A stretch of DNA of 64,000 bases, taken from UHGV virus genome UHGV-0370399; one strand, written 5' to 3'. The position numbers were made by a program, and so were the translations under genes. The DNA comes from a virus. Under the pieces are notes generated by a model that saw only the letters and a list, made by a program, of their open reading frames with translations, was not told where the DNA came from and did no database searches. Each line of letters opens with the position of its first letter. The first letter of the stretch is position 1. This document shows, piece by piece, positions 4,493 through 64,000 of this stretch.

Positions 4493-5066
4493 AAAAGGTC
4501 TAGTTAGAACCTTAGTGGATGTTATTGGTCACAGACTAGCTCGTGATAAAAATAATAGACCAAATGTAATTAGAGCTTACCCTTCTGATAACTCAAATGA
4601 CAAAGGTTTAAAACCTGACCAGCCATTTATTACCGTATATTGTCAAGATGCTGCAACACCTTATGGTTGGGTTCTTGATAAGTTTGTTGAGGATGATGTA
4701 GTTTGCTACAGAATTGCTTTTCAGATTCCAGTATTAATTACGGTGAATGGTAAAGGTGCTCACAGTATTATGCTTGAGCTTAAACAACGATTAGAGATGA
4801 GTTCAGTCAGGGATTTAATTCTTGAAGAGACAGGAGCTACAGTACTAGACACTGGAGCCATCCCAAATGACTACACTTATCTCAATACAGATTTCGAAAA
4901 TTCTGCGCCTCTTGTTGTAACTCTTGTAAAAAATTCAGTCCTGAAAGATGAACGTGGAAGTATTATTGAGCGTGTCATTGTTGATGGTGAGTTGGTTTAT
5001 GAAGAAGGACAAGAGCCACCAGAATATACTATCCATCTAGATGTAGACTCCAAAGGGGTAAAATAA
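4467..5066 (+). CDS. hypothetical tail completion / sheath terminator protein
   Basis: ATG 4467 with SD aggga; lies directly before the sheath-like gene. Confidence 0.3.
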   Translation: MQLETAELEKGLVRTLVDVIGHRLARDKNNRPNVIRAYPSDNSNDKGLKPDQPFITVYCQDAATPYGWVLDKFVEDDVVCYRIAFQIPVLITVNGKGAHSIMLELKQRLEMSSVRDLILEETGATVLDTGAIPNDYTYLNTDFENSAPLVVTLVKNSVLKDERGSIIERVIVDGELVYEEGQEPPEYTIHLDVDSKGVK

Positions 5067-6954: not shown

Positions 6955-7353
6955 ATGAAAACAGAATCTAGAGTAATTAATGGTAAGAAAGTAAATATCG
7001 TTCTGCTTGGGGCAAGAGATGGTATTAAGATGTCTATGAAGTTGGGTAAAATTGTTGTTCCAACTTTTGCACAGATGCTGTCAAGTCTGACTGACAAGGG
7101 TAAGAAAGAAGCTCCAATGGTTCCATTTAAAGAACTTGTTGAAGCTTGTTTTGACAGAATTGAAGAAATTAACCTTGAAGAAATGGCTACCCTGTTATTT
7201 CAAGGAGCAACTGTTGATGACTTCCCACTTAATATTGATACATACTTCCAAGCAAACTATGGTGAATTTATTGATTACTTAGCATTTGCGCTGGAGGCAA
7301 ACTTCGGAAGTTTTTTCGAAGCAAGCATTTTCAAAAGCCTAACTTCTCAGTAA
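6955..7353 (+). CDS. tail assembly chaperone (upstream frame)
   Basis: 132 aa acidic ORF directly upstream of the tape measure gene; SD aaggaa. Confidence 0.5.
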   Translation: MKTESRVINGKKVNIVLLGARDGIKMSMKLGKIVVPTFAQMLSSLTDKGKKEAPMVPFKELVEACFDRIEEINLEEMATLLFQGATVDDFPLNIDTYFQANYGEFIDYLAFALEANFGSFFEASIFKSLTSQ

Positions 7354-7594
7354 ACATGGGTAACACTCTACAGACACCACTGACTGATGCTGCTGTAGAG
7401 GCAACCTATGAAGAAGCAGACGAGATGAAATTTGTGCTTGCTATTTATGGTATGGAAGGGTGTAAAGAAACACTTGACCAACTCTTTGCTATGACATTCT
7501 CTGATTTATTATCATTGAGACAATTTCTTGAAATTCAGAGGTCGTATAAAGAGGAAATTGCTTACAACGAACTTAGAAGAGCAGGAAAAATGTA

Positions 7595-34023: not shown

Positions 34024-34333
34024 GCTCCACATGAAATGCGATGGAGAAGTTGAAATAGAACAACAGTTCCATCAAAGTATGATTACAGTCATCATTACAC
34101 TGCCTCAGCATAATATTGGTTGGCTGTTTATAATGAAAGAAAATGTGTTTGAATATCAAGTATATCGGAGAATATCATGAAACACTCTAAAGCATTTGAA
34201 AAAGTTTTTGGGGATTCCTTAAAAGCCACTGCTGGAAAACCAGCAAAATACTATGAAGAAAAACGTGTAAGAACTGGAAAAACTGCACGTAAAGCAGCTT
34301 CTAAAGATAAGCACAACTTCCAGTAATTAGTAT

Positions 34334-34362
34334 TTGACAATAGAGTATCAACAAATTAGAAT
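34334..34362 (+). promoter_or_regulatory. near-consensus sigma70 promoter upstream of the SSB-like gene
   Basis: TTGACA, 17 bp spacer, TAGAAT, 36 bp before the ATG at 34399. Confidence 0.6.
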
Positions 34363-34398
34363 TGGTACTCTTCATAAATTGAGATAGAGGTTTAAATA

Positions 34399-35256
34399 AT
34401 GTCTAAAGTTGTTAAAATGAAAGCTCCGGTAGAGAAGTACAACGGTACTGAACGTCAAACTCTGCGTTACCTGCTGAAAGATGTCTGGTTTTATTACCTG
34501 AACACTTCACCACGTCCGGGTAAAGGTAAATCTATTGACAAGAAATTCCCAGGAAAAGATTGTAACTACAGCGTATCAATTCTGGCAGAAGACGGTAACA
34601 AACTCTTTAAAGAGTTTACTAAGTCTAAGAAGAACCCAGAAGGTTGGGATAAAGTTACTACTGAAGCAGTTGATGCAGATGACTTCGAAGAGAAGTTTGG
34701 TTGCAAACCACCTTTTGAAGCAGACACTTACTACATCTTGAAAGTAAGTCGTGCAGCAGCTTATAAAGATGGTGCTGTATGGACAGCTAAACAGTCATTC
34801 CCTGTTATGCTTATTGAAGAAGTAAATGGTAAGCGTGTAGCTGTTAAACAGCCGATGAAGAAAATTAAAGCTCAAGCATCTGATAAACACGAAGATGACA
34901 AGAACTATGATGTAATTCATCCAGATATTGCAGTTGGTAACGGTTCTTTTGGTAGTGTGATTCTTTCTACTCACTTCTACACTTTTGAGAACAATGTTCT
35001 GACAAAACCTATTCAGGAACAGTTTATCATTGATACTCTTGTACCTTACACTGGTGGTAACGGTGCTAATGGTGAACCTGAACTGGATGAAGATGAACTG
35101 GCTATGCTTGGTCTTGATGGTGTTGAAGATAACGGTGAAATCACTGAAGAAGACGCAACAGACCATAAATCTTCGAATGATTCTGATGATGGTGATGATG
35201 AAGACTTGCCAGACCCAGATGACGAAGAAGATGAAGACTTCGATACAGAAGACTAA
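34399..35256 (+). CDS. putative single-stranded DNA-binding protein
   Basis: 285 aa with very acidic C-terminal tail (DEDLPDPDDEEDEDFDTED), as in phage SSBs; located between the helicase and flap endonuclease genes. Confidence 0.5.
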   Translation: MSKVVKMKAPVEKYNGTERQTLRYLLKDVWFYYLNTSPRPGKGKSIDKKFPGKDCNYSVSILAEDGNKLFKEFTKSKKNPEGWDKVTTEAVDADDFEEKFGCKPPFEADTYYILKVSRAAAYKDGAVWTAKQSFPVMLIEEVNGKRVAVKQPMKKIKAQASDKHEDDKNYDVIHPDIAVGNGSFGSVILSTHFYTFENNVLTKPIQEQFIIDTLVPYTGGNGANGEPELDEDELAMLGLDGVEDNGEITEEDATDHKSSNDSDDGDDEDLPDPDDEEDEDFDTED

Positions 35257-58009: not shown

Positions 58010-58094
58010 AGTACTTTACATGGGGTTTAAAAGTTGATATCTTAAGCCCCAGATAAAGAGCTTTACCACTCAATCCTAAACTGGAGATTCAAAA
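58010..58094 (+). promoter_or_regulatory. cassette module B2
   Basis: TTTACA, hairpin GGGGTTTAA ... TTAAGCCCC (58022-58050), conserved RBS segment. Confidence 0.6.
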
Positions 58095-58607
58095 ATGAAA
58101 ACTGTAGACGCTACCTTTGAAGTTGTAAAAGAAAAATTCACCATTATCTATGAAGCTGTTAATTGCTTTGAAGCAAGTCATAATCTTGACAATTGGAAGT
58201 TTACAGATGACCATCAAGGCGGTGTAACTGTTAAAAATCCTAACTGCCAGCATAATGAATTTAAATATGCAATCCCTTTACATTACAGCCTTAAACAGCT
58301 TTCTAGTGACTATGCAAAACAAGGCCGGGAAAATCCATCAAAAGAGGCTTACGCAAGCTTACAGAAAGAACTAGAAAGAGATTTAGAGGCGTCAGAGTAT
58401 AACCTTGCCGCGAAAGTTGTGGATGCAAACGGTAGCACGGTTTTAGAAAGTTTTTATCTTGGTTATGCTTTCGATTGGTGCTATCGTGACGGCGATGATT
58501 TAGAAGATAGACTAAAAGAAGAGGTGAACAACGCAGACGCAGAATCTGAAGTATTAGAACGTTTGGAATCGTTGAAAGACTCAGTGATGAATATCTTTAA
58601 GAACTAA
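58095..58607 (+). CDS. cassette gene 3, hypothetical acidic protein
   Basis: 170 aa after module B2. Confidence 0.5.
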   Translation: MKTVDATFEVVKEKFTIIYEAVNCFEASHNLDNWKFTDDHQGGVTVKNPNCQHNEFKYAIPLHYSLKQLSSDYAKQGRENPSKEAYASLQKELERDLEASEYNLAAKVVDANGSTVLESFYLGYAFDWCYRDGDDLEDRLKEEVNNADAESEVLERLESLKDSVMNIFKN

Positions 58608-58699
58608 ATAGATTTCTTTACACGGGGTTATCAAGCTGGTATGATAGCCCCAGATAAAGAGATTTATCAAATAAAGCCCTTAAACTAGGAGATTCTAAA
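58608..58699 (+). promoter_or_regulatory. cassette module B3
   Basis: TTTACA-17-TATGAT with hairpin GGGGTTATCA ... TGATAGCCCC (58624-58651); stem sequence covaries relative to B1. Confidence 0.6.
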
Positions 58700-58996
58700 A
58701 TGAAATTATCAAATCAAGTGCGTGAAAATCTAAGCAAATTACTCAACAAAATTGATTTCATTGAAACATCAAGGAATAGTCATGATGTTATGGAATGGTT
58801 ACACGGCAAAATAAAAGGTCGTCGTGTAGTGATTTGCTTATGGAATAGTTGTAGGGAATATAAAAAACCTGTATTGCAAGTCAATATTTATGATGATACT
58901 TTTAAAAGTCCTGTAAAGTCTAAAAGCGATTTATTAGAATCCTATGAGATAACTGTAAATGGCAAAGTATCACGTAAAGAGAAAACACCATGTTAA
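58700..58996 (+). CDS. cassette gene 4, hypothetical protein
   Basis: 98 aa after module B3. Confidence 0.45.
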   Translation: MKLSNQVRENLSKLLNKIDFIETSRNSHDVMEWLHGKIKGRRVVICLWNSCREYKKPVLQVNIYDDTFKSPVKSKSDLLESYEITVNGKVSRKEKTPC

Positions 58997-59322
58997 TGAT
59001 GGGTATCACTGCAATCATTGCCATTATAGCACTTTACAAGGCTTATAGCGCATATACTTTGGCAAGTAAGGCAATCACGCAACAGGTTAACAATAATCTC
59101 GTGATGAGCTTTCTAGAGCGTTTAAGTGATGAGCAAATAAAACGGTTAGAAATGAGCTTCAGATTCCAATCAAAAACTTATCAAATCAGCGACATTTTCA
59201 AAGATGATTTCCAGTTAGTCGATGATTATAACTCTCTGATAAATGCTTTAAATATCAGTGATTTAAAAGATTATCATGCTGTAATTGTTCAAGAATTGAG
59301 CAAACGAAAACAAAACTGTTGA
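58990..59322 (+). CDS. cassette gene 5, membrane-anchored hypothetical protein
   Basis: N-terminal hydrophobic helix; coupled to gene 4 with no module between; stop TGA lies inside the next TTGACA. Confidence 0.45.
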   Translation: MLMMGITAIIAIIALYKAYSAYTLASKAITQQVNNNLVMSFLERLSDEQIKRLEMSFRFQSKTYQISDIFKDDFQLVDDYNSLINALNISDLKDYHAVIVQELSKRKQNC

Positions 59323-59413
59323 CACTGATTTCTAGATAGATTAAATTACTAATCAACGGGGAGGGAATGACCTTCCCCACTAAATAAAGTCCTTAAACTA
59401 GGAGATTCAAAAA
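59319..59413 (+). promoter_or_regulatory. cassette module A2
   Basis: TTGACA-17-TAAATT then the conserved stem-loop leader and GGAG. Confidence 0.65.
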
Positions 59414-59686
59414 ATGTATACTACTAACAACGGTCGCACCTTAAATGTCACCTTGCGTCACTATGTAGACGGTGTGATGTGCTTTGAAGATTTACGGGCT
59501 GAGCAACACATCTTAAATTGGCAAGTTGCAGGACTCCAAAAAACTGCTACCGGATACGGTAAAAAGATTCCAACTAGCTGGAAAGTATACTACGAAGGCC
59601 GTTTGCGTAGAATTTATCAAGATGTACACAGCAATAGCGCAACAAGTTACATCATGGTAAAAGGTAAAAAGCTGCATTTAGTATAA
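59414..59686 (+). CDS. cassette gene 6, hypothetical protein
   Basis: 90 aa after module A2. Confidence 0.45.
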   Translation: MYTTNNGRTLNVTLRHYVDGVMCFEDLRAEQHILNWQVAGLQKTATGYGKKIPTSWKVYYEGRLRRIYQDVHSNSATSYIMVKGKKLHLV

Positions 59687-59772
59687 AGTACTTTACAAGG
59701 GGCTTATAGTTCGATAAAGTAAGCCCCAGATAAAGAGCTTTACCACTCAATCCTAAATTGGAGAACTTAAAA
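59687..59772 (+). promoter_or_regulatory. cassette module B4 (near-identical to B1)
   Basis: About 86 bp direct repeat of 57630-57715, hairpin 59699-59727. Confidence 0.6.
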
Positions 59773-60177
59773 ATGGCTATTAATAACCGTGAATTATCAA
59801 CCTTAAAAGCACGTTTGACCGTTAATCGAATCAACATTATGACATCATCAGCGCCTGATGAGACATTGCACAACATTATCGGAAAGATTCAAAGCGTTAT
59901 TTTAGACGTTGAAAACGTAAAAAATTCATTGGCTGACGTTGCAGCAGGTATCACGCTAGACGGTGCGCAATATGAAATGTCCGACATGTTAGGCAAATCT
60001 AAGGTAATGAATAAAGAGTTAGATTTGAAAATGTTCCGATTTGCTGTTAAAGTGTGGCTATCTGTCGAGTATGATGCTAACTTTGCAATCGCTGACTTTT
60101 TCGCCACTTGGTTGCAGCGTAATTTGACTAATCATGACTTCCGTAATATCTGTGATGCAATTTATGCAGAACTTTAA
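59773..60177 (+). CDS. cassette gene 7, hypothetical protein
   Basis: ATG at 59773 (ORF-track start is the TTG inside the module); N-terminus MAI as in genes 2 and 9. Confidence 0.45.
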   Translation: MAINNRELSTLKARLTVNRINIMTSSAPDETLHNIIGKIQSVILDVENVKNSLADVAAGITLDGAQYEMSDMLGKSKVMNKELDLKMFRFAVKVWLSVEYDANFAIADFFATWLQRNLTNHDFRNICDAIYAEL

Positions 60178-60186
60178 AAAATTTTG

Positions 60187-60278
60187 TTGACACTGATTTT
60201 TAGATAGGTTAAATTACACATCAACGGGGAGGGAATGACCTTCCCCACTAAATAAAGTCCTAAACTGGAGATTCTAAA
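60187..60278 (+). promoter_or_regulatory. cassette module A3
   Basis: TTGACA-17-TAAATT then the conserved stem-loop leader. Confidence 0.65.
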
Positions 60279-60527
60279 ATGATGAATTTTTTAAATATCC
60301 CTGATACTTGCCGACTGTTGACGCAACCAGAAAATTTAGGCAAACCTTTCCTGTACCATATGCCAGACAATACACCAAAAACATATAGCTACACGGTTAA
60401 CCGCTTTACGGGTTACGCTGCAAAAAACGGTTACAAGGTTACTACTCAAAAAGTAACACTATTTACAAATATCGAAGAGCTTCCAACAATCGCTGTAAAA
60501 CTAATATTTACGAAGAAGACGCAATAA
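60279..60527 (+). CDS. cassette gene 8, hypothetical protein
   Basis: 82 aa after module A3. Confidence 0.45.
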   Translation: MMNFLNIPDTCRLLTQPENLGKPFLYHMPDNTPKTYSYTVNRFTGYAAKNGYKVTTQKVTLFTNIEELPTIAVKLIFTKKTQ

Positions 60528-60613
60528 AGTACTTTACAGGGGGCTTGGAAGTTGATATCTTAAGCCCCAGATAAAGAGCTTTACCACTAAATCCTAAACT
60601 GGAGAACTTAAAA
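60528..60613 (+). promoter_or_regulatory. cassette module B5
   Basis: TTTACA, hairpin 60540-60568, conserved RBS segment. Confidence 0.6.
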
Positions 60614-60817
60614 ATGGCTATTATCAACGGCTTACACATTGAAACAACTCACATCAAAGATATTAAAGTTGGTGATGTAGTCCTTTCCCACGGCGTAGAG
60701 AAAACTGTCACTGCAAAGGATATTAAAGAGGATTCTTTCATGGGTAGGACTCTTTTCGGTGATTCTTATTGCTTAGGTTACCTTGCAGTTTTAAAAGTTG
60801 TCAAAAATAACAAATAA
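60614..60817 (+). CDS. cassette gene 9, hypothetical small protein
   Basis: 67 aa; starts MAII; ends KNNK inside the next module. Confidence 0.45.
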   Translation: MAIINGLHIETTHIKDIKVGDVVLSHGVEKTVTAKDIKEDSFMGRTLFGDSYCLGYLAVLKVVKNNK

Positions 60818-60902
60818 AGTACTTTACAAGGGGCTTAAAAGTTGATATCTTAAGCCCCAGATAAAGAGCTTTACCACTAAATCCTAAACTGGAGATTCAA
60901 AA
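60818..60902 (+). promoter_or_regulatory. cassette module B6
   Basis: TTTACA, perfect 9 bp hairpin GGGGCTTAA ... TTAAGCCCC (60830-60858). Confidence 0.6.
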
Positions 60903-61445
60903 ATGAAATGTTTTCACGGTACTACTCAAGAAAATTTCCTCAACCTGATTAATAACGGTGATAAACCATCAGGCGCATGGAATTGTTCGGATATGGACGG
61001 CAATTTTTACGTGTATCCAGAAAATAAAATCTATGGCGACGATGAGGAAGAAATAATCTCTGAAGGTATCCAGCAAGCTCTTGGCAATGCCACTATAACG
61101 GCAGCTTTTCAGATGAAAACTCAAAATATTGTTATCTTGGAACTTGATATTCCAGAGGATGAGTTGAATGATGATTATTCTTGTGATAATATGTCGAGCG
61201 TGGCAAGTTTTACAGAGTATTTTGATATAAGCTGGATTAAAAAGGTTTACATCACTGAATTTAATGCCATGTTTTCACCTTTTTGTCTTCCTTCATTGGA
61301 TAACCCAAATTTAAATTATCTTGATGAGTCTCTGGAGCTTCTTGCTAAAAGTGTTCAACAGTCGGACAGTATTCAGGTTTTTTGTGACATCATGGATACA
61401 CTAACAGGAAACATCACAGAAGAAGATTTAAAGAGCTTTTTCTAA
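60903..61445 (+). CDS. cassette gene 10, hypothetical acidic protein
   Basis: 180 aa after module B6; followed by a terminator. Confidence 0.45.
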   Translation: MKCFHGTTQENFLNLINNGDKPSGAWNCSDMDGNFYVYPENKIYGDDEEEIISEGIQQALGNATITAAFQMKTQNIVILELDIPEDELNDDYSCDNMSSVASFTEYFDISWIKKVYITEFNAMFSPFCLPSLDNPNLNYLDESLELLAKSVQQSDSIQVFCDIMDTLTGNITEEDLKSFF

Positions 61446-61477
61446 AAACCTATGCAATCACCTTATAAACACTAATC

Positions 61478-61497
61478 AGCCCCTCACAGGGGCTTTT
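61478..61497 (+). terminator. intrinsic terminator
   Basis: AGCCCCT cac AGGGGCT followed by TTT; same element as 63577-63598. Confidence 0.6.
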
Positions 61498-61511
61498 AGG
61501 GGGCTTAAATC

Positions 61512-61745
61512 ATGCTAACAACCATTTATCTCATCCTCTCAATTTGTAATGGCCATTCATGTGATTTTAAAGGGCTTGAGGAGTTCACAGGAAGTAAAGA
61601 AAATGCTATTCAAGTTTGCCAGATAGCAAGGCAAGACTACCCCGCAAGTGATGATATTCAGTGTTACTTTAAGACAGAAGATGACGACGGAATCTATTTC
61701 GATAGTGTTGATGGTCAGTATGAAATTATCATTGAAAAAGACTAG
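61512..61745 (+). CDS. cassette gene 11, small protein with hydrophobic N-terminus
   Basis: 77 aa; SD aggggg; stop TAG forms the first bases of the next -35 hexamer. Confidence 0.4.
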   Translation: MLTTIYLILSICNGHSCDFKGLEEFTGSKENAIQVCQIARQDYPASDDIQCYFKTEDDDGIYFDSVDGQYEIIIEKD

Positions 61746-61835
61746 ACAAGCCTGATAAAAATCTGTAAATTGTCAATCAACGGGGAGGGAATGACCTTCC
61801 CCACTAAATAAAGTCCTAAACTGGAGAATCTAAAA
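61743..61835 (+). promoter_or_regulatory. cassette module A4
   Basis: TAGACA-17-TAAATT then the conserved stem-loop leader. Confidence 0.6.
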
Positions 61836-62177
61836 ATGGCTTATGTAACCGTAATTACCGATAAAGCTGGCGCATCTTGGTCAACTCAGGTCAGTGATAA
61901 GATGTCACCTATGCAGTGCCTAAAATACTTTGAACAGTGGAATAAAGGCGAGGACACAAGCCCCTTTCAAGTGATGCAGATTATCCATGTAGACAATGAA
62001 GGGAATAAAACGACACTGAATAGTGAGTACTATGCAAGCCGTTTTGAAACGAGAAGTAAAACAATGAAACTTTTACGTGAATCCGGTTATGCCCATATCG
62101 CCGCGTTAATCTGGGATGACCTGCTAAAAAGTCAGCGTATCAGCTATGTAAAGCCTGAAAAAATATTCATCAGTTAA
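61836..62177 (+). CDS. cassette gene 12, hypothetical protein
   Basis: 113 aa after module A4. Confidence 0.45.
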   Translation: MAYVTVITDKAGASWSTQVSDKMSPMQCLKYFEQWNKGEDTSPFQVMQIIHVDNEGNKTTLNSEYYASRFETRSKTMKLLRESGYAHIAALIWDDLLKSQRISYVKPEKIFIS

Positions 62178-62209
62178 TCAATAACTTATAAAAAACTTTT
62201 AAAAAAGTG

Positions 62210-62238
62210 TTGACAATACCCATTGACATTGGTAACTT
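62210..62238 (+). promoter_or_regulatory. orphan sigma70-like promoter
   Basis: TTGACA-17-TAACTT with a second TTGACA inside the spacer; no ORF before the next module. Confidence 0.45.
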
Positions 62239-62307
62239 TGTTCGAGGGGGTTTATCTAAAAGGGATTCACTTAAAAGATTTCTTTATAGATAAGCTTAAA
62301 AAATTGC

Positions 62308-62429
62308 TTGCAATCAGATATCAAAACAAGTAAATTACTAATCAATGGGGAGGGAATGAACTTCCCCACTAAACAAAGCCCTTAAACTAGGAGATTCTAA
62401 AATTCAACTACATCCGTTCAATTCATGTC
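62308..62429 (+). promoter_or_regulatory. cassette module A5 (degenerate; start codon displaced)
   Basis: TTGCAA-17-TAAATT with stem-loop variant GGGGAGGGaatgaaCTTCCCC; the usual ATG position reads aaaattc and the gene ATG is 30 nt further. Confidence 0.5.
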
Positions 62430-62915
62430 ATGTCAAAGCCTGTTAAAGATACCTATGAATTCCGTTGTAATGGGGTACACTTTGCAACCATCACTAAGTC
62501 AGAAAACGGGGCTTATTATGTACATCGTCGTAATGTTGCAACCGTTGTAGTCTCTCACTTTATGCAAGCTGTAGCGGAATTATTACCGTTATTCTTAGAG
62601 ATTTACTTAGATGAGTGTAAAAACGTTCACAACCACGTTAAAAACCTTTTAAACGGTTATAAAATGGCTTATGAACGTTCTATTAAGTCACTGAATAAGT
62701 TTTACAATGCACCTGCAAATACTGTTTCAATGGCTTATGATGTAAACGGTGAGTTAGTTAGCCTCTTCGAAGTGGAAGGAATTAAGCTGTATAATTTACG
62801 TCCTAGCGGTTACTCTAAGACTCTTGGTGAAGGTTTATCCTTTAATATCAAGAACTTAGAAAAAACTTTAAAAGACATTGAAAAAGATATTGACGAGACA
62901 CTTAAAAGTCTGTAA
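62430..62915 (+). CDS. cassette gene 13, hypothetical protein
   Basis: 161 aa; ATG far from the module SD; stop TAA lies inside the next -10 hexamer. Confidence 0.4.
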   Translation: MSKPVKDTYEFRCNGVHFATITKSENGAYYVHRRNVATVVVSHFMQAVAELLPLFLEIYLDECKNVHNHVKNLLNGYKMAYERSIKSLNKFYNAPANTVSMAYDVNGELVSLFEVEGIKLYNLRPSGYSKTLGEGLSFNIKNLEKTLKDIEKDIDETLKSL

Positions 62916-62981
62916 ATTGTCAATCAACGGGGAGGGAATGACCTTCCCCACTAAGTAAAGTCCTAAACTGGAGTTATCAAG
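62890..62981 (+). promoter_or_regulatory. cassette module A6
   Basis: TTGACG-17-TAAATT then the conserved stem-loop leader. Confidence 0.6.
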
Positions 62982-63245
62982 ATGGAAAACGTAGAATTAA
63001 CCACACTTTTACAAATTGCAACCGACAAAGAAAACGTAGCTTTATTTCACCGCATCGAAAGTGATTTGTTCAATGGTGAAATCATCAAAGAGTCTTACGA
63101 GGTTGTTGGATTCAAAGATGGTAAAACATTTGGATTCTTTGACCTCGAAAAAGGCAACGCTGTTACAAAATATGATGTTTTATCTTGTGAGATTCTTACA
63201 AAATACAATGAAAAAAGGCTTGCAACATACGCCAATATGCAGTAA
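62982..63245 (+). CDS. cassette gene 14, hypothetical protein
   Basis: 87 aa; stop TAA coincides with the -10 TAAATT of the next module. Confidence 0.45.
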   Translation: MENVELTTLLQIATDKENVALFHRIESDLFNGEIIKESYEVVGFKDGKTFGFFDLEKGNAVTKYDVLSCEILTKYNEKRLATYANMQ

Positions 63246-63311
63246 ATTACTAATCAACGGGAGGCGATAACCTCCCCACTAAATAAAACCCTTAAACTAG
63301 GAGATTCAAAA
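63220..63311 (+). promoter_or_regulatory. cassette module A7 (stem-loop with compensatory changes)
   Basis: TTGCAA-17-TAAATT; leader hairpin GGGAGG cgataa CCTCCC replaces GGGGAGGG aatga CCTTCCCC while keeping base-pairing. Confidence 0.6.
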
Positions 63312-63725
63312 ATGGCAACTATCCGCGCTACTGTTAACGAGTTCGGTTTTTCCTCTCTGGATGTTAAATTTGACATTGCAGGCACTGATAACGCCTTTGA
63401 AATGGTGAAAGGTCTTATCAGTCAGACCATCAAAGACTATAATCCTTCTGATGAGTTCTGGAAAGAAACAAAACAGGAAGTTCTCAAAGAGGGTTATTCT
63501 TATCACTATTGGGGTGAAAAAATTGTCTCTCTGTACTACGACAAAGAAGGCACTATAGCCTCAGATACCTTTATACAGCCCCTCATAGGGGCTTTTTTAC
63601 GTCTATCCAATCCTTATACAATCCCTTTCCCTCACCTTTCCAGAATCTTATCAGACCTTAAAAGCAATAACTCTATAGTCTACTCTATAACCTCTTATCA
63701 AATCAACTTAAATAAAAGCCAATAA
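63312..63725 (+). CDS. cassette gene 15, hypothetical protein (3' end uncertain)
   Basis: 137 aa ORF after module A7; a terminator-like hairpin lies inside it about 130 nt before the stop. Confidence 0.4.
   Translation: MATIRATVNEFGFSSLDVKFDIAGTDNAFEMVKGLISQTIKDYNPSDEFWKETKQEVLKEGYSYHYWGEKIVSLYYDKEGTIASDTFIQPLIGAFLRLSNPYTIPFPHLSRILSDLKSNNSIVYSITSYQINLNKSQ
63577..63598 (+). terminator. terminator-like hairpin embedded in the last cassette ORF
   Basis: AGCCCCT cat AGGGGCT followed by TTTTT. Confidence 0.5.
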
Positions 63726-63943
63726 CCCCAGAAAGGGGATGGCCCATTTAAACGCTCTATAAAGCTCTATAACAGCCTTATCAACCTAACTTAAGGGATT
63801 GCATTAACCTATCTTAAAAAGCTCTTTACAGGGCTTTATAGAGGCTTAAAAGAATCTTATAAGGGTGTAAGCTTATAGGCTGGTTAGTATCTTGTGAATG
63901 GTTAAACAACCCCCTTGCTAGTCACTAAAAAGCATGTTATAGG

Positions 63944-64000
63944 GGCTATAAAGTTACTTCAAAGTTACGTAAAAAAGGCTATAAAGTTACTTCAAAGTTA
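63944..64000. repeat. tandem 33 bp repeat truncated by the window edge
   Basis: ggctataaagttacttcaaagtta at 63944 and 63977 separated by cgtaaaaaa; CTATAAAG-like motifs also at 63764-63784 and 63834-63845. Confidence 0.7.

Follow-up and report, generated by a model that had tools for sequence, protein, structure and literature searches.

Introduction

The formation of exact short terminal repeats has, to our knowledge, been well studied only in phages T7 and T3. The repeated-heptamer arrays of T7 were reportedly named SRL and SRR by Dunn and Studier in 1983, and as far as we know their function is unsettled. In phage lambda, cosB is composed of R sites plus an IHF bend, and in SPP1 the terminase recognition sites are pacL and pacR. 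The present work deals with a tandem array of a 33-bp unit at the end of a 64,000-nt stretch of the virus genome UHGV-0370399 (hereafter the window, meaning the whole stretch, positions 1-64000), and with the relation of this array to the genome ends of Felix O1-like phages.

In the original genome paper of Felix O1, "short terminal repeats" were inferred from the genome size and were not located. By PhageTerm, a direct terminal repeat (DTR) of 613 bp was assigned to vB_EcoM-Ro111lw (Ro111lw; PMC6454146), one of 581 bp to vB_EcoM-Pr103Blw (Pr103Blw; PMC8303462), and a DTR was also assigned to D4 (PMC11737134). These three relatives were studied in two independent laboratories, D4 in a different one than Ro111lw and Pr103Blw. 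No description of the phased array or of the TGTTAR arrays reported below was found in the searched literature, which did not cover the UAB_Phi87 genome-ends paper (PMC4837284), and the papers on wV8, AYO145A, Mijalis, Bas63 cryo-EM, PHEIGES and PhageMaP were silent on this region.

Results

Two units of the array were identified on the plus strand at the end of the window. Unit 1 (GGCTATAAAGTTACTTCAAAGTTACGTAAAAAA, 63944-63976) consists of 33 bp with the modules GGCTATAAAGT, TACTTCAAAGT and TACGTAAAAAA, and unit 2 starts at 63977, reads GGCTATAAAGTTACTTCAAAGTTA and is clipped by the window edge at 64000. Based on the repeat finder, unit 2 was identical to unit 1 at 24 of 24 bases (63944-63967 versus 63977-64000, an offset of 33 nt), and the 1.73 visible copies of the unit constitute a tandem array. 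When the last 500 nt were shuffled 300 times, the longest close direct repeat was 7.8 nt on average and 11 nt at maximum. The tandem 33-bp repeat which the original prediction, made from the letters of the window, had placed at 63944 and 63977 was thus confirmed, both by an identity above the shuffle maximum and by an array call of the tandem repeat finder (TRF). A close repeat of comparable length was present at a single other place of the 64-kb window, the coding repeats at 16.3-16.7 kb, and the 33-mer had no further match in the window with up to 3 mismatches allowed. When viral, metagenome and genome contigs were scanned for exact occurrences of the repeat junction, 0 matches were returned.

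The array was called by TRF with a period of 11 (63950-64000, 4.6 copies). In this 11-nt register it reads GGCTATAAAGT TACTTCAAAGT TACGTAAAAAA GGCTATAAAGT TACTTCAAAGT TA, the module consensus is NNCTNNAAAGT, and each diverged 11-mer closes with an A-tract plus G(T). The 33-bp unit is thus a higher-order repeat of three diverged 11-bp modules. The periodicity of AA dinucleotides near 11 bp in 63944-64000 was in the top 0.2% of equal-sized window segments. Nearly as strong an 11-bp AA periodicity was observed at 62600-62900 and ~34150-34450, in the early gene 62430-62915 and near 34.2 kb respectively, with a power of 1.9-2.0 compared to 2.08 for the array. The unit also contains the 8-bp palindrome TTACGTAA (63966-63973), of which 1 copy was found in the remaining 63.5 kb of the window.

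The last 700 bases of the window matched 206 phage records, nearly all of them Felix O1-like (Felixounavirus), with a best identity of 92.6%, and the closest relatives were ~93% identical over the last few kilobases. The nucleotide similarity to Felixounavirus (Ounavirinae) was in agreement with the order of gp22, gp23 and a gene-free region, and PHROG matches were obtained for the head protease, major head protein, sheath, tape measure, DNA polymerase, primase/helicase, ribonucleotide reductases and rIIA/rIIB. By these similarities the window is that of a Felix O1-like myophage of the genus Felixounavirus. It begins at the head protease, and the terminase genes lie outside it. ARAGORN detected zero tRNA genes in the window. 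Felix O1-like phages have about 17 to 26 tRNA genes, so the tRNA cluster must be in the ~22 kb outside the window, as must the terminase and portal genes.

In Felix O1 and Barry, the homologous position opens a stretch of 1.6-1.7 kb without annotated genes between gp23 (plus strand) and gp24 (minus strand), members of two gene blocks that converge, and by homology the last ~440 bases of the window are the opening of this gene-free region. No open reading frame (ORF) longer than 43 aa was present in the gene-free region of Barry (1.68 kb), on which grounds a hidden gene was rejected, and the small ORFs annotated there in GEC_vB_NS7, E9 and Sl26 were not conserved. A strong terminator stands at either edge of the region in Barry, which insulates it from transcription. 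A structured noncoding RNA was rejected as well: at E <= 1, no Rfam family matched within the homologous Barry region, the two weak matches being elsewhere in the locus or over the far terminator, and the fold of 63900-64000 was no better than that of shuffled sequences (z = 0.34).

The position of the array was then compared with the genome ends mapped in relatives. The two end copies in the records were identical with 0 mismatches in Ro111lw (613 bp), Pr103Blw (581 bp; annotated in GenBank as repeat_region 1-581 and 87841-88421) and D4 (581 bp), and in these relatives the same sequence was therefore present at both ends, as in a T7-type short DTR. In all three, the terminal repeat begins directly after the homologous array at ...ACGTAAATGCTA|GCCCCCTTAACA, a left junction also written ...AAAGTTACGTAAATGCTA|GCCCCCTTAACA, and extends over 581-613 bp. 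The DTR of Ro111lw and Pr103Blw starts at ...ATAAAGTTACGTAAATGCTA|GCCCCCTTAACATTTTCTTAACAA and ends at ...GTTAAGGGCTACC|AAGCAGATATAC, the terminal duplication of D4 has the same boundaries, and the right end reads ...GGGCTACC|AAGCAG in the three phages. Additionally, the records of E9, I14.1 and H12, which derive from the same study as D4, begin at or within 1 base of the left junction, and so does the reverse-oriented record of SPJ41. The linear record of BPS15Q2 (KX405003.1) ends with ...GTATGTTATAGGGG and starts with TTACGTAAATGCTAGCCCCC, an assembly break inside the array at which array units were probably lost.

The window aligned with the relatives up to 63990, 10 nt short of its edge, and the homolog of the array is the segment immediately left of the cut. 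The junction TAG|CCCCC itself would fall at least 11-12 nt past 64000, outside the window, and the upstream side alone was aligned. The suggestion that the array could be near a genome terminus or packaging site was therefore supported by homology, as the DTR of the relatives begins directly after it.

A comparison with 19 relatives from three genera (Felixounavirus, Suspvirus and Mooglevirus) showed that the left junction, AAAGT(T/A)ACGTAAA(T/A)G(C/T)TA(G/A) followed by CCCCCTT(A/T)AC, was conserved in 19 of 19, and in every one of them the array ended 3 nt before the cut. The last copy of the palindrome TTACGTAA ended 8 nt before the start of the terminal repeat, counting to the G of GCCCCC; it lay within the terminal module ACGTAAATGCTAG| in 15 of the 19 relatives, AACGTAA stood there in 2 more, and the other 2 were not displayed. 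Arrays were between about 1.5 and 5 units long, and their lengths differed in steps of 11 bp. The shortest arrays, of about 1.5 units, were found in bumzen, UAB_Phi87 and SUSP2, the common arrangement was 33+22, and the longest arrays were those of Si3 (33 bp x4.5, TRF score 242) and GEC_vB_NS7 (22 bp x5). In 15 of the 19 relatives, the distance from the upstream anchor GTATGTTATAGG to the cut was 47, 58, 69, 102 or 157 nt, all of which are 3 mod 11. The module consensus CTNNAAAGT was kept across the three genera, the surrounding DNA being 74-77% identical. The repeat and its 11-bp substructure are thus conserved at a fixed position, 3 nt from a junction that is the DTR boundary in the mapped relatives.

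Unit 2 of the window is of the long type with one extra 11-bp module, whereas the second unit of the closest relatives is short. In BPS17W1 and IMGVR_4167 the long unit is followed directly by CGTAAATGCTAG|CCCCC, and the simplest continuation of the window would thus be cgtaaatgctag|ccccc with two units in total. Extrapolated in this way, the first DTR base of the window phage is most likely at about 64012, or 33n further, so that the DTR is predicted to start at G|CCCCCTTAACA, some 12 nt outside the window. The idea that the repeat opens a longer tandem array was not borne out, because the arrays of the 19 relatives are short, vary in copy number and end at the terminus, which does not fit the beginning of a long satellite.

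The remaining parts of the terminal region were characterized in relatives. In Barry, 28 forward TGTTA(A/G) sites were counted in ~1 kb, compared to a window background of 0.93 per kb; they span the DTR plus the DNA right of it, and many are 11 bp apart. Reverse copies were limited to three, CTTAACA x3, spaced by 11 bp and located immediately inside the left DTR end. CTTGTTAG occurred 10 times in Barry while 0.04 occurrences were expected. The DTR ends are mutually inverted, with CCCTTAACA on the left and TGTTAAGGG on the right, and the right junction TGTT(A/T)AGGGCTACC|AAGCAGATA was conserved in all relatives checked. Among the relatives, the copy number of CTTAACA ranged from 3 to 5. The two with the most expanded outer arrays, GEC_vB_NS7 (~800-905) and Si3 (4635-4849), also carried an expanded CTTAACA array (5 versus 3 copies), and in these two relatives the outer array and the CTTAACA array may co-vary across the cut site. 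A partner for the 33-bp unit was also sought beyond the right DTR boundary and rejected: the candidate TTCCTTCAAAGACCCTAAAAAATGACTTGATAG matched at only 22 of 33 positions, and comparably weak matches occur at several places throughout the region, which indicates shared module composition and not a specific partner.

Erwinia phage Tian (Kolesnikvirus) showed nucleotide similarity confined to ~75 nt near the right boundary. Its segment 1019-2414 is gene-free between converging blocks and contains TGTTAA arrays and a CTAAGCAGATATAC motif, and its upstream arrays carry TTCTAAG in place of CTATAAAG. Both the motif of the right boundary and the TGTTAA arrays are thus retained in this genus as well. 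This different upstream motif suggested co-evolving pairs of motif and protein across Ounavirinae. A Felix O1-type terminal region was also recognized in GenBank GU169904.1 (Staphylococcus phage SA1, 147 kb) at 135358-137078, 85-92% identical to coliphage relatives, and this record is probably chimeric or contaminated.

Upstream of the array, CTATAAAG was located at 63757 (plus strand) and 63834 (minus strand), and within the array at 63946 and 63979 (both plus strand), which makes 4 of the 9 window copies when 2.6 were expected in the whole window. These positions bore out the original prediction of motifs in both orientations, whose coordinates were a few bases off. The forward arm of the CTATAAAG-type motif (63748-63773, plus strand) comprises two GCTCTATAA(A/C) copies 10 bp apart, as delimited by a TRF row at 63749-63772, CTATAAAG at 63757 and CTCTATAAC at 63765. 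The inverted copy, of the CTCTATAAAG motif (63834-63848, minus strand), includes the minus-strand CTATAAAG at 63834-63841, and the inverted pair 63760-63772 / 63836-63848 is 85% complementary. In the alignments, a conserved noncoding block, CTTAAAAGAATCTTATAAGGG ... TATCTTGTGAA ... GCATGTTATAGG (63845-63943), precedes the array.

The noncoding segment 63726-63943 was 82-99% identical to IMGVR_4167, LF110P4, SUSP2 and Mordin, compared to 67-76% for the gp23 coding sequence (82% versus 67.5% in IMGVR_4167, 85% versus 76% in SUSP2 and 84% versus 74% in Mordin). In divergent relatives the noncoding flank is therefore at least as conserved as the gp23 gene, which argues for selection on the DNA itself.

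The last early gene is the homolog of gp23 (ORF23) of Felix O1, whose conserved part (63312-63557, plus strand) was identified by synteny and by its match to Barry gp24 over residues 1-81. In the window the ORF extends over 63312-63725, the stop codon having been removed by a deletion of ~22 bp in comparison with Barry. The original prediction of noncoding sequence after the last gene is to be corrected accordingly, as by homology the gene-free region starts at ~63558 and not at 63726. The ORF is lengthened from 82 to 137 aa and runs across the hairpin at 63577-63593. Because Felix O1 gp23 has been reported in the virion proteome (PMC3185647), the 55-aa non-homologous tail of the window homolog might matter. 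The hairpin belongs to an intrinsic terminator (63577-63599, plus strand; 7-bp stem with 5 GC pairs, followed by TTTTTT) that closes the rightward early transcription unit, and a homologous terminator is annotated in Barry and Mordin.

Further upstream, the early-gene spacers in 58010-63311 fall into two repeated families that contain hairpins, type 1 (agtactttacaNggggcttaaaagttgatatcttaagccccagataaagagctttaccact; 58010, 59687, 60528 and 60818) and type 2 (attactaatcaacggggagggaatgaccttccccactaaataaagtcc; 59323, 60178, 61746, ~62330, 62916 and 63246). Repeats of 57 bp and 39 bp, to which both families are similar, were noted in the Felix O1 paper, and the spacer families could be drivers of gene-cassette shuffling.

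Discussion

We propose that the last ~440 bases of the window are the outer unique-sequence flank of the left DTR boundary, and that the array in it acts as a helically phased terminase-recognition or bending element; the probability of this reading is put at roughly 0.55. Its two parts differ in strength. That the array adjoins the genome end is highly probable from the alignments with relatives, and the window phage would then share their terminus, with a DTR of about 0.6 kb. That the array helps the terminase to recognise or cut the left boundary is more tentative, its chance being put somewhat short of even.

In the proposed mechanism, the 11-bp modules would run in helical phase to 3 nt before the cut at TAG|CCCCCTTAACA. 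Replication would yield concatemers with one DTR copy per junction between genome units, and the phased A-tract array outside the DTR would form a curved or protein-wrapping platform to which the inverted CTTAACA repeats just inside the DTR might contribute. The terminase or an accessory DNA-binding protein would bind this platform and be positioned to cut the left boundary, and a second conserved site, TGTTAAGGGCTACC|AAGCAGATA, would mark the right boundary, with the right cut at GGGCTACC|AAGCAG. The DTR would be duplicated during packaging, as in T7-type phages, and array copies would be gained or lost by slippage in 11-bp steps with the helical phase retained.

Several points weigh against this proposal. 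The terminus of the window phage was deduced solely from relatives whose overall identity does not exceed 93%, the PhageTerm boundaries are possibly off by a base or two, and no protein-DNA binding data were found for any Felixounavirus terminal region. The copy number varies freely between about 1.5 and 5 units, and the shortest arrays hold one full module plus the terminal module, so most of the array may be dispensable. The quantisation by 11 bp is also expected from simple slippage between 11-bp-periodic repeats, with no selection needed. Phage T7 tolerated insertions at the majority of loci close to its genome ends (PMC11482910), and by analogy the flanking arrays would be individually non-essential.

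Some of these points also speak for the array as a neutral by-product, a slippage-prone spacer beside the cut. In this view cutting would depend on no more than the last ~20 nt (AAAGTTACGTAAATGCTAG|CCCCC), and the repeated units themselves would be functionless. Unit number and type do differ freely among close relatives, from Si3 and GEC_vB_NS7 at one extreme to bumzen, UAB_Phi87 and SUSP2 at the other; length changes by whole 11-bp modules are what replication slippage predicts; and the tolerated T7 insertions fit. We nevertheless consider a neutral origin rather unlikely, as CTNNAAAGT has been kept across three genera amid 74-77% identity, the entire flank is conserved like coding DNA, and the phased-array design recurs with a different motif in Kolesnikvirus, and in T7. 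A role as iterons of a replication origin, with an initiator bound to the phased repeats and the AT-rich stretch past the right DTR boundary as unwinding element, was regarded as improbable. Phased 11- to 33-bp direct repeats and dense unidirectional TGTTAR arrays look iteron-like, in Barry the right DTR boundary is followed by ~130 bp of repeat-free, AT-rich DNA (7330-7460), and the region is gene-free and insulated from transcription. However, no initiator gene is adjacent, the GC skew of the window tracks gene orientation with no origin-type switch here, and the array is locked at 3 nt from the cut in all 19 relatives, which is predicted by a terminus function and not by an origin.

Two further explanations are very improbable. 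With their resemblance to a TATAAA-type -10 element, the CTATAAAG-like motifs might be phage promoters or regulator sites, for which the enrichment of CTATAAAG at this locus and the presence of TAAAG-type motifs in the early intergenic spacers could be adduced. Yet the 1.6 kb downstream hold no gene and the genes beyond are encoded on the other strand, sigma-70-like sites were not in excess (5 versus 5.8 +/- 2.9 in the window tail and 8 versus 5.1 +/- 2.8 in the whole gene-free region of Barry), and neither an Rfam family nor a stable fold was found. The other window copies of CTATAAAG and AAAGTTAC lie in unrelated, mostly coding contexts, and because they share no flanking context and are mostly intragenic, a genome-wide regulatory motif was rejected too. 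As for an assembly artefact, the extra 11 bases of unit 2 might be an assembly error produced where coverage steps at the terminal repeat, since assemblies break or collapse here, as in BPS15Q2, and the second unit of the closest relatives is short. But long terminal units or multi-unit arrays are present in the independent genomes BPS17W1, IMGVR_4167, Si3 and GEC_vB_NS7, and the window version fits the same 11-bp register.

A wider and doubtful extension of the terminase-recognition proposal is that the entire gene-free region of 1.6-1.7 kb, which is conserved across Ounavirinae, is a dedicated "phage telomere" module made up of the phased CTNNAAAG modules outside the left cut, the three inverted CTTAACA copies directly inside that cut, the ~28 unidirectional TGTTAR sites in and past the repeat, and the conserved right cut motif. 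In such a module, a hypothetical phage DNA-binding protein would polymerise along the arrays and set both cuts, hence the DTR length, and the end duplication might be coupled to replication. If true, this would be a terminase-recognition architecture undescribed for myophages.

The predicted physical end of the window genome can be transferred to many Felix O1-like records with arbitrary start points. Correct ends are needed because Felix O1-type phages are used in typing and biocontrol of Salmonella and E. coli and in cell-free rebooting. Moreover, the 11-bp array, CTTAACA and TGTTAR are compact, conserved candidate cis elements for studying how myophages make exact short terminal repeats.

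Compared to phages with cohesive ends or headful packaging series, such as lambda (cosB) and SPP1 (pac), the locus shares the presence of several short, helically phased sites by the cleavage site, where bending, intrinsic or induced, has been proposed to wrap the DNA on the small terminase. It differs in that exact terminal repeats are expected here, no sequence similarity exists, and the evidence comes from sequence. Iteron origins (lambda ori, P1 oriR and plasmid iterons) likewise have helically phased 11- to 33-bp tandem repeats with an AT-rich segment nearby, but the present array has no initiator gene beside it, and its position is tied to the cut and not to an unwinding element; no DnaA boxes came up, although no search was aimed at them. 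The published DTRs of Felixounavirus (Ro111lw, Pr103Blw, D4, E9, I14.1 and H12) concern the homologous locus, and the window aligns just left of the right-hand DTR copy. Those reports give the length and position of the repeat only, and the window phage has an extra 11-bp module.

The design is also like that of T7 and T3, which have a short, exact, non-permuted DTR (taken here from the relatives) and an array in the unique DNA just outside the repeat boundary. Inspection of the T7 ends confirmed the 160-bp terminal repeat and revealed NCTAAAG heptamers spaced by 13 bp in the first part of the left unique region (175-340); copies related to them precede the right repeat. In both systems a TAAAG-type motif, always in the same orientation, fills the gene-free flank and recurs about once per helical turn, here as CTNNAAAG every 11 bp. 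The differences are that the window belongs to a myophage unrelated to the podophage T7, that the period is 11 and not 13 bp, that the DTR is ~600 and not 160 bp, that the modules form a 33-bp higher-order unit, and that the TGTTAR family, with about 28 copies, fills the repeat itself. Moreover, T7 has phiOL and phiOR, whereas no phage RNA-polymerase promoters are evident here. The finding is one of terminus-flanking phased repeats of a short-DTR phage, a kind already familiar from T7, and as DTRs have already been reported for the genus, it is a refinement rather than a surprise.

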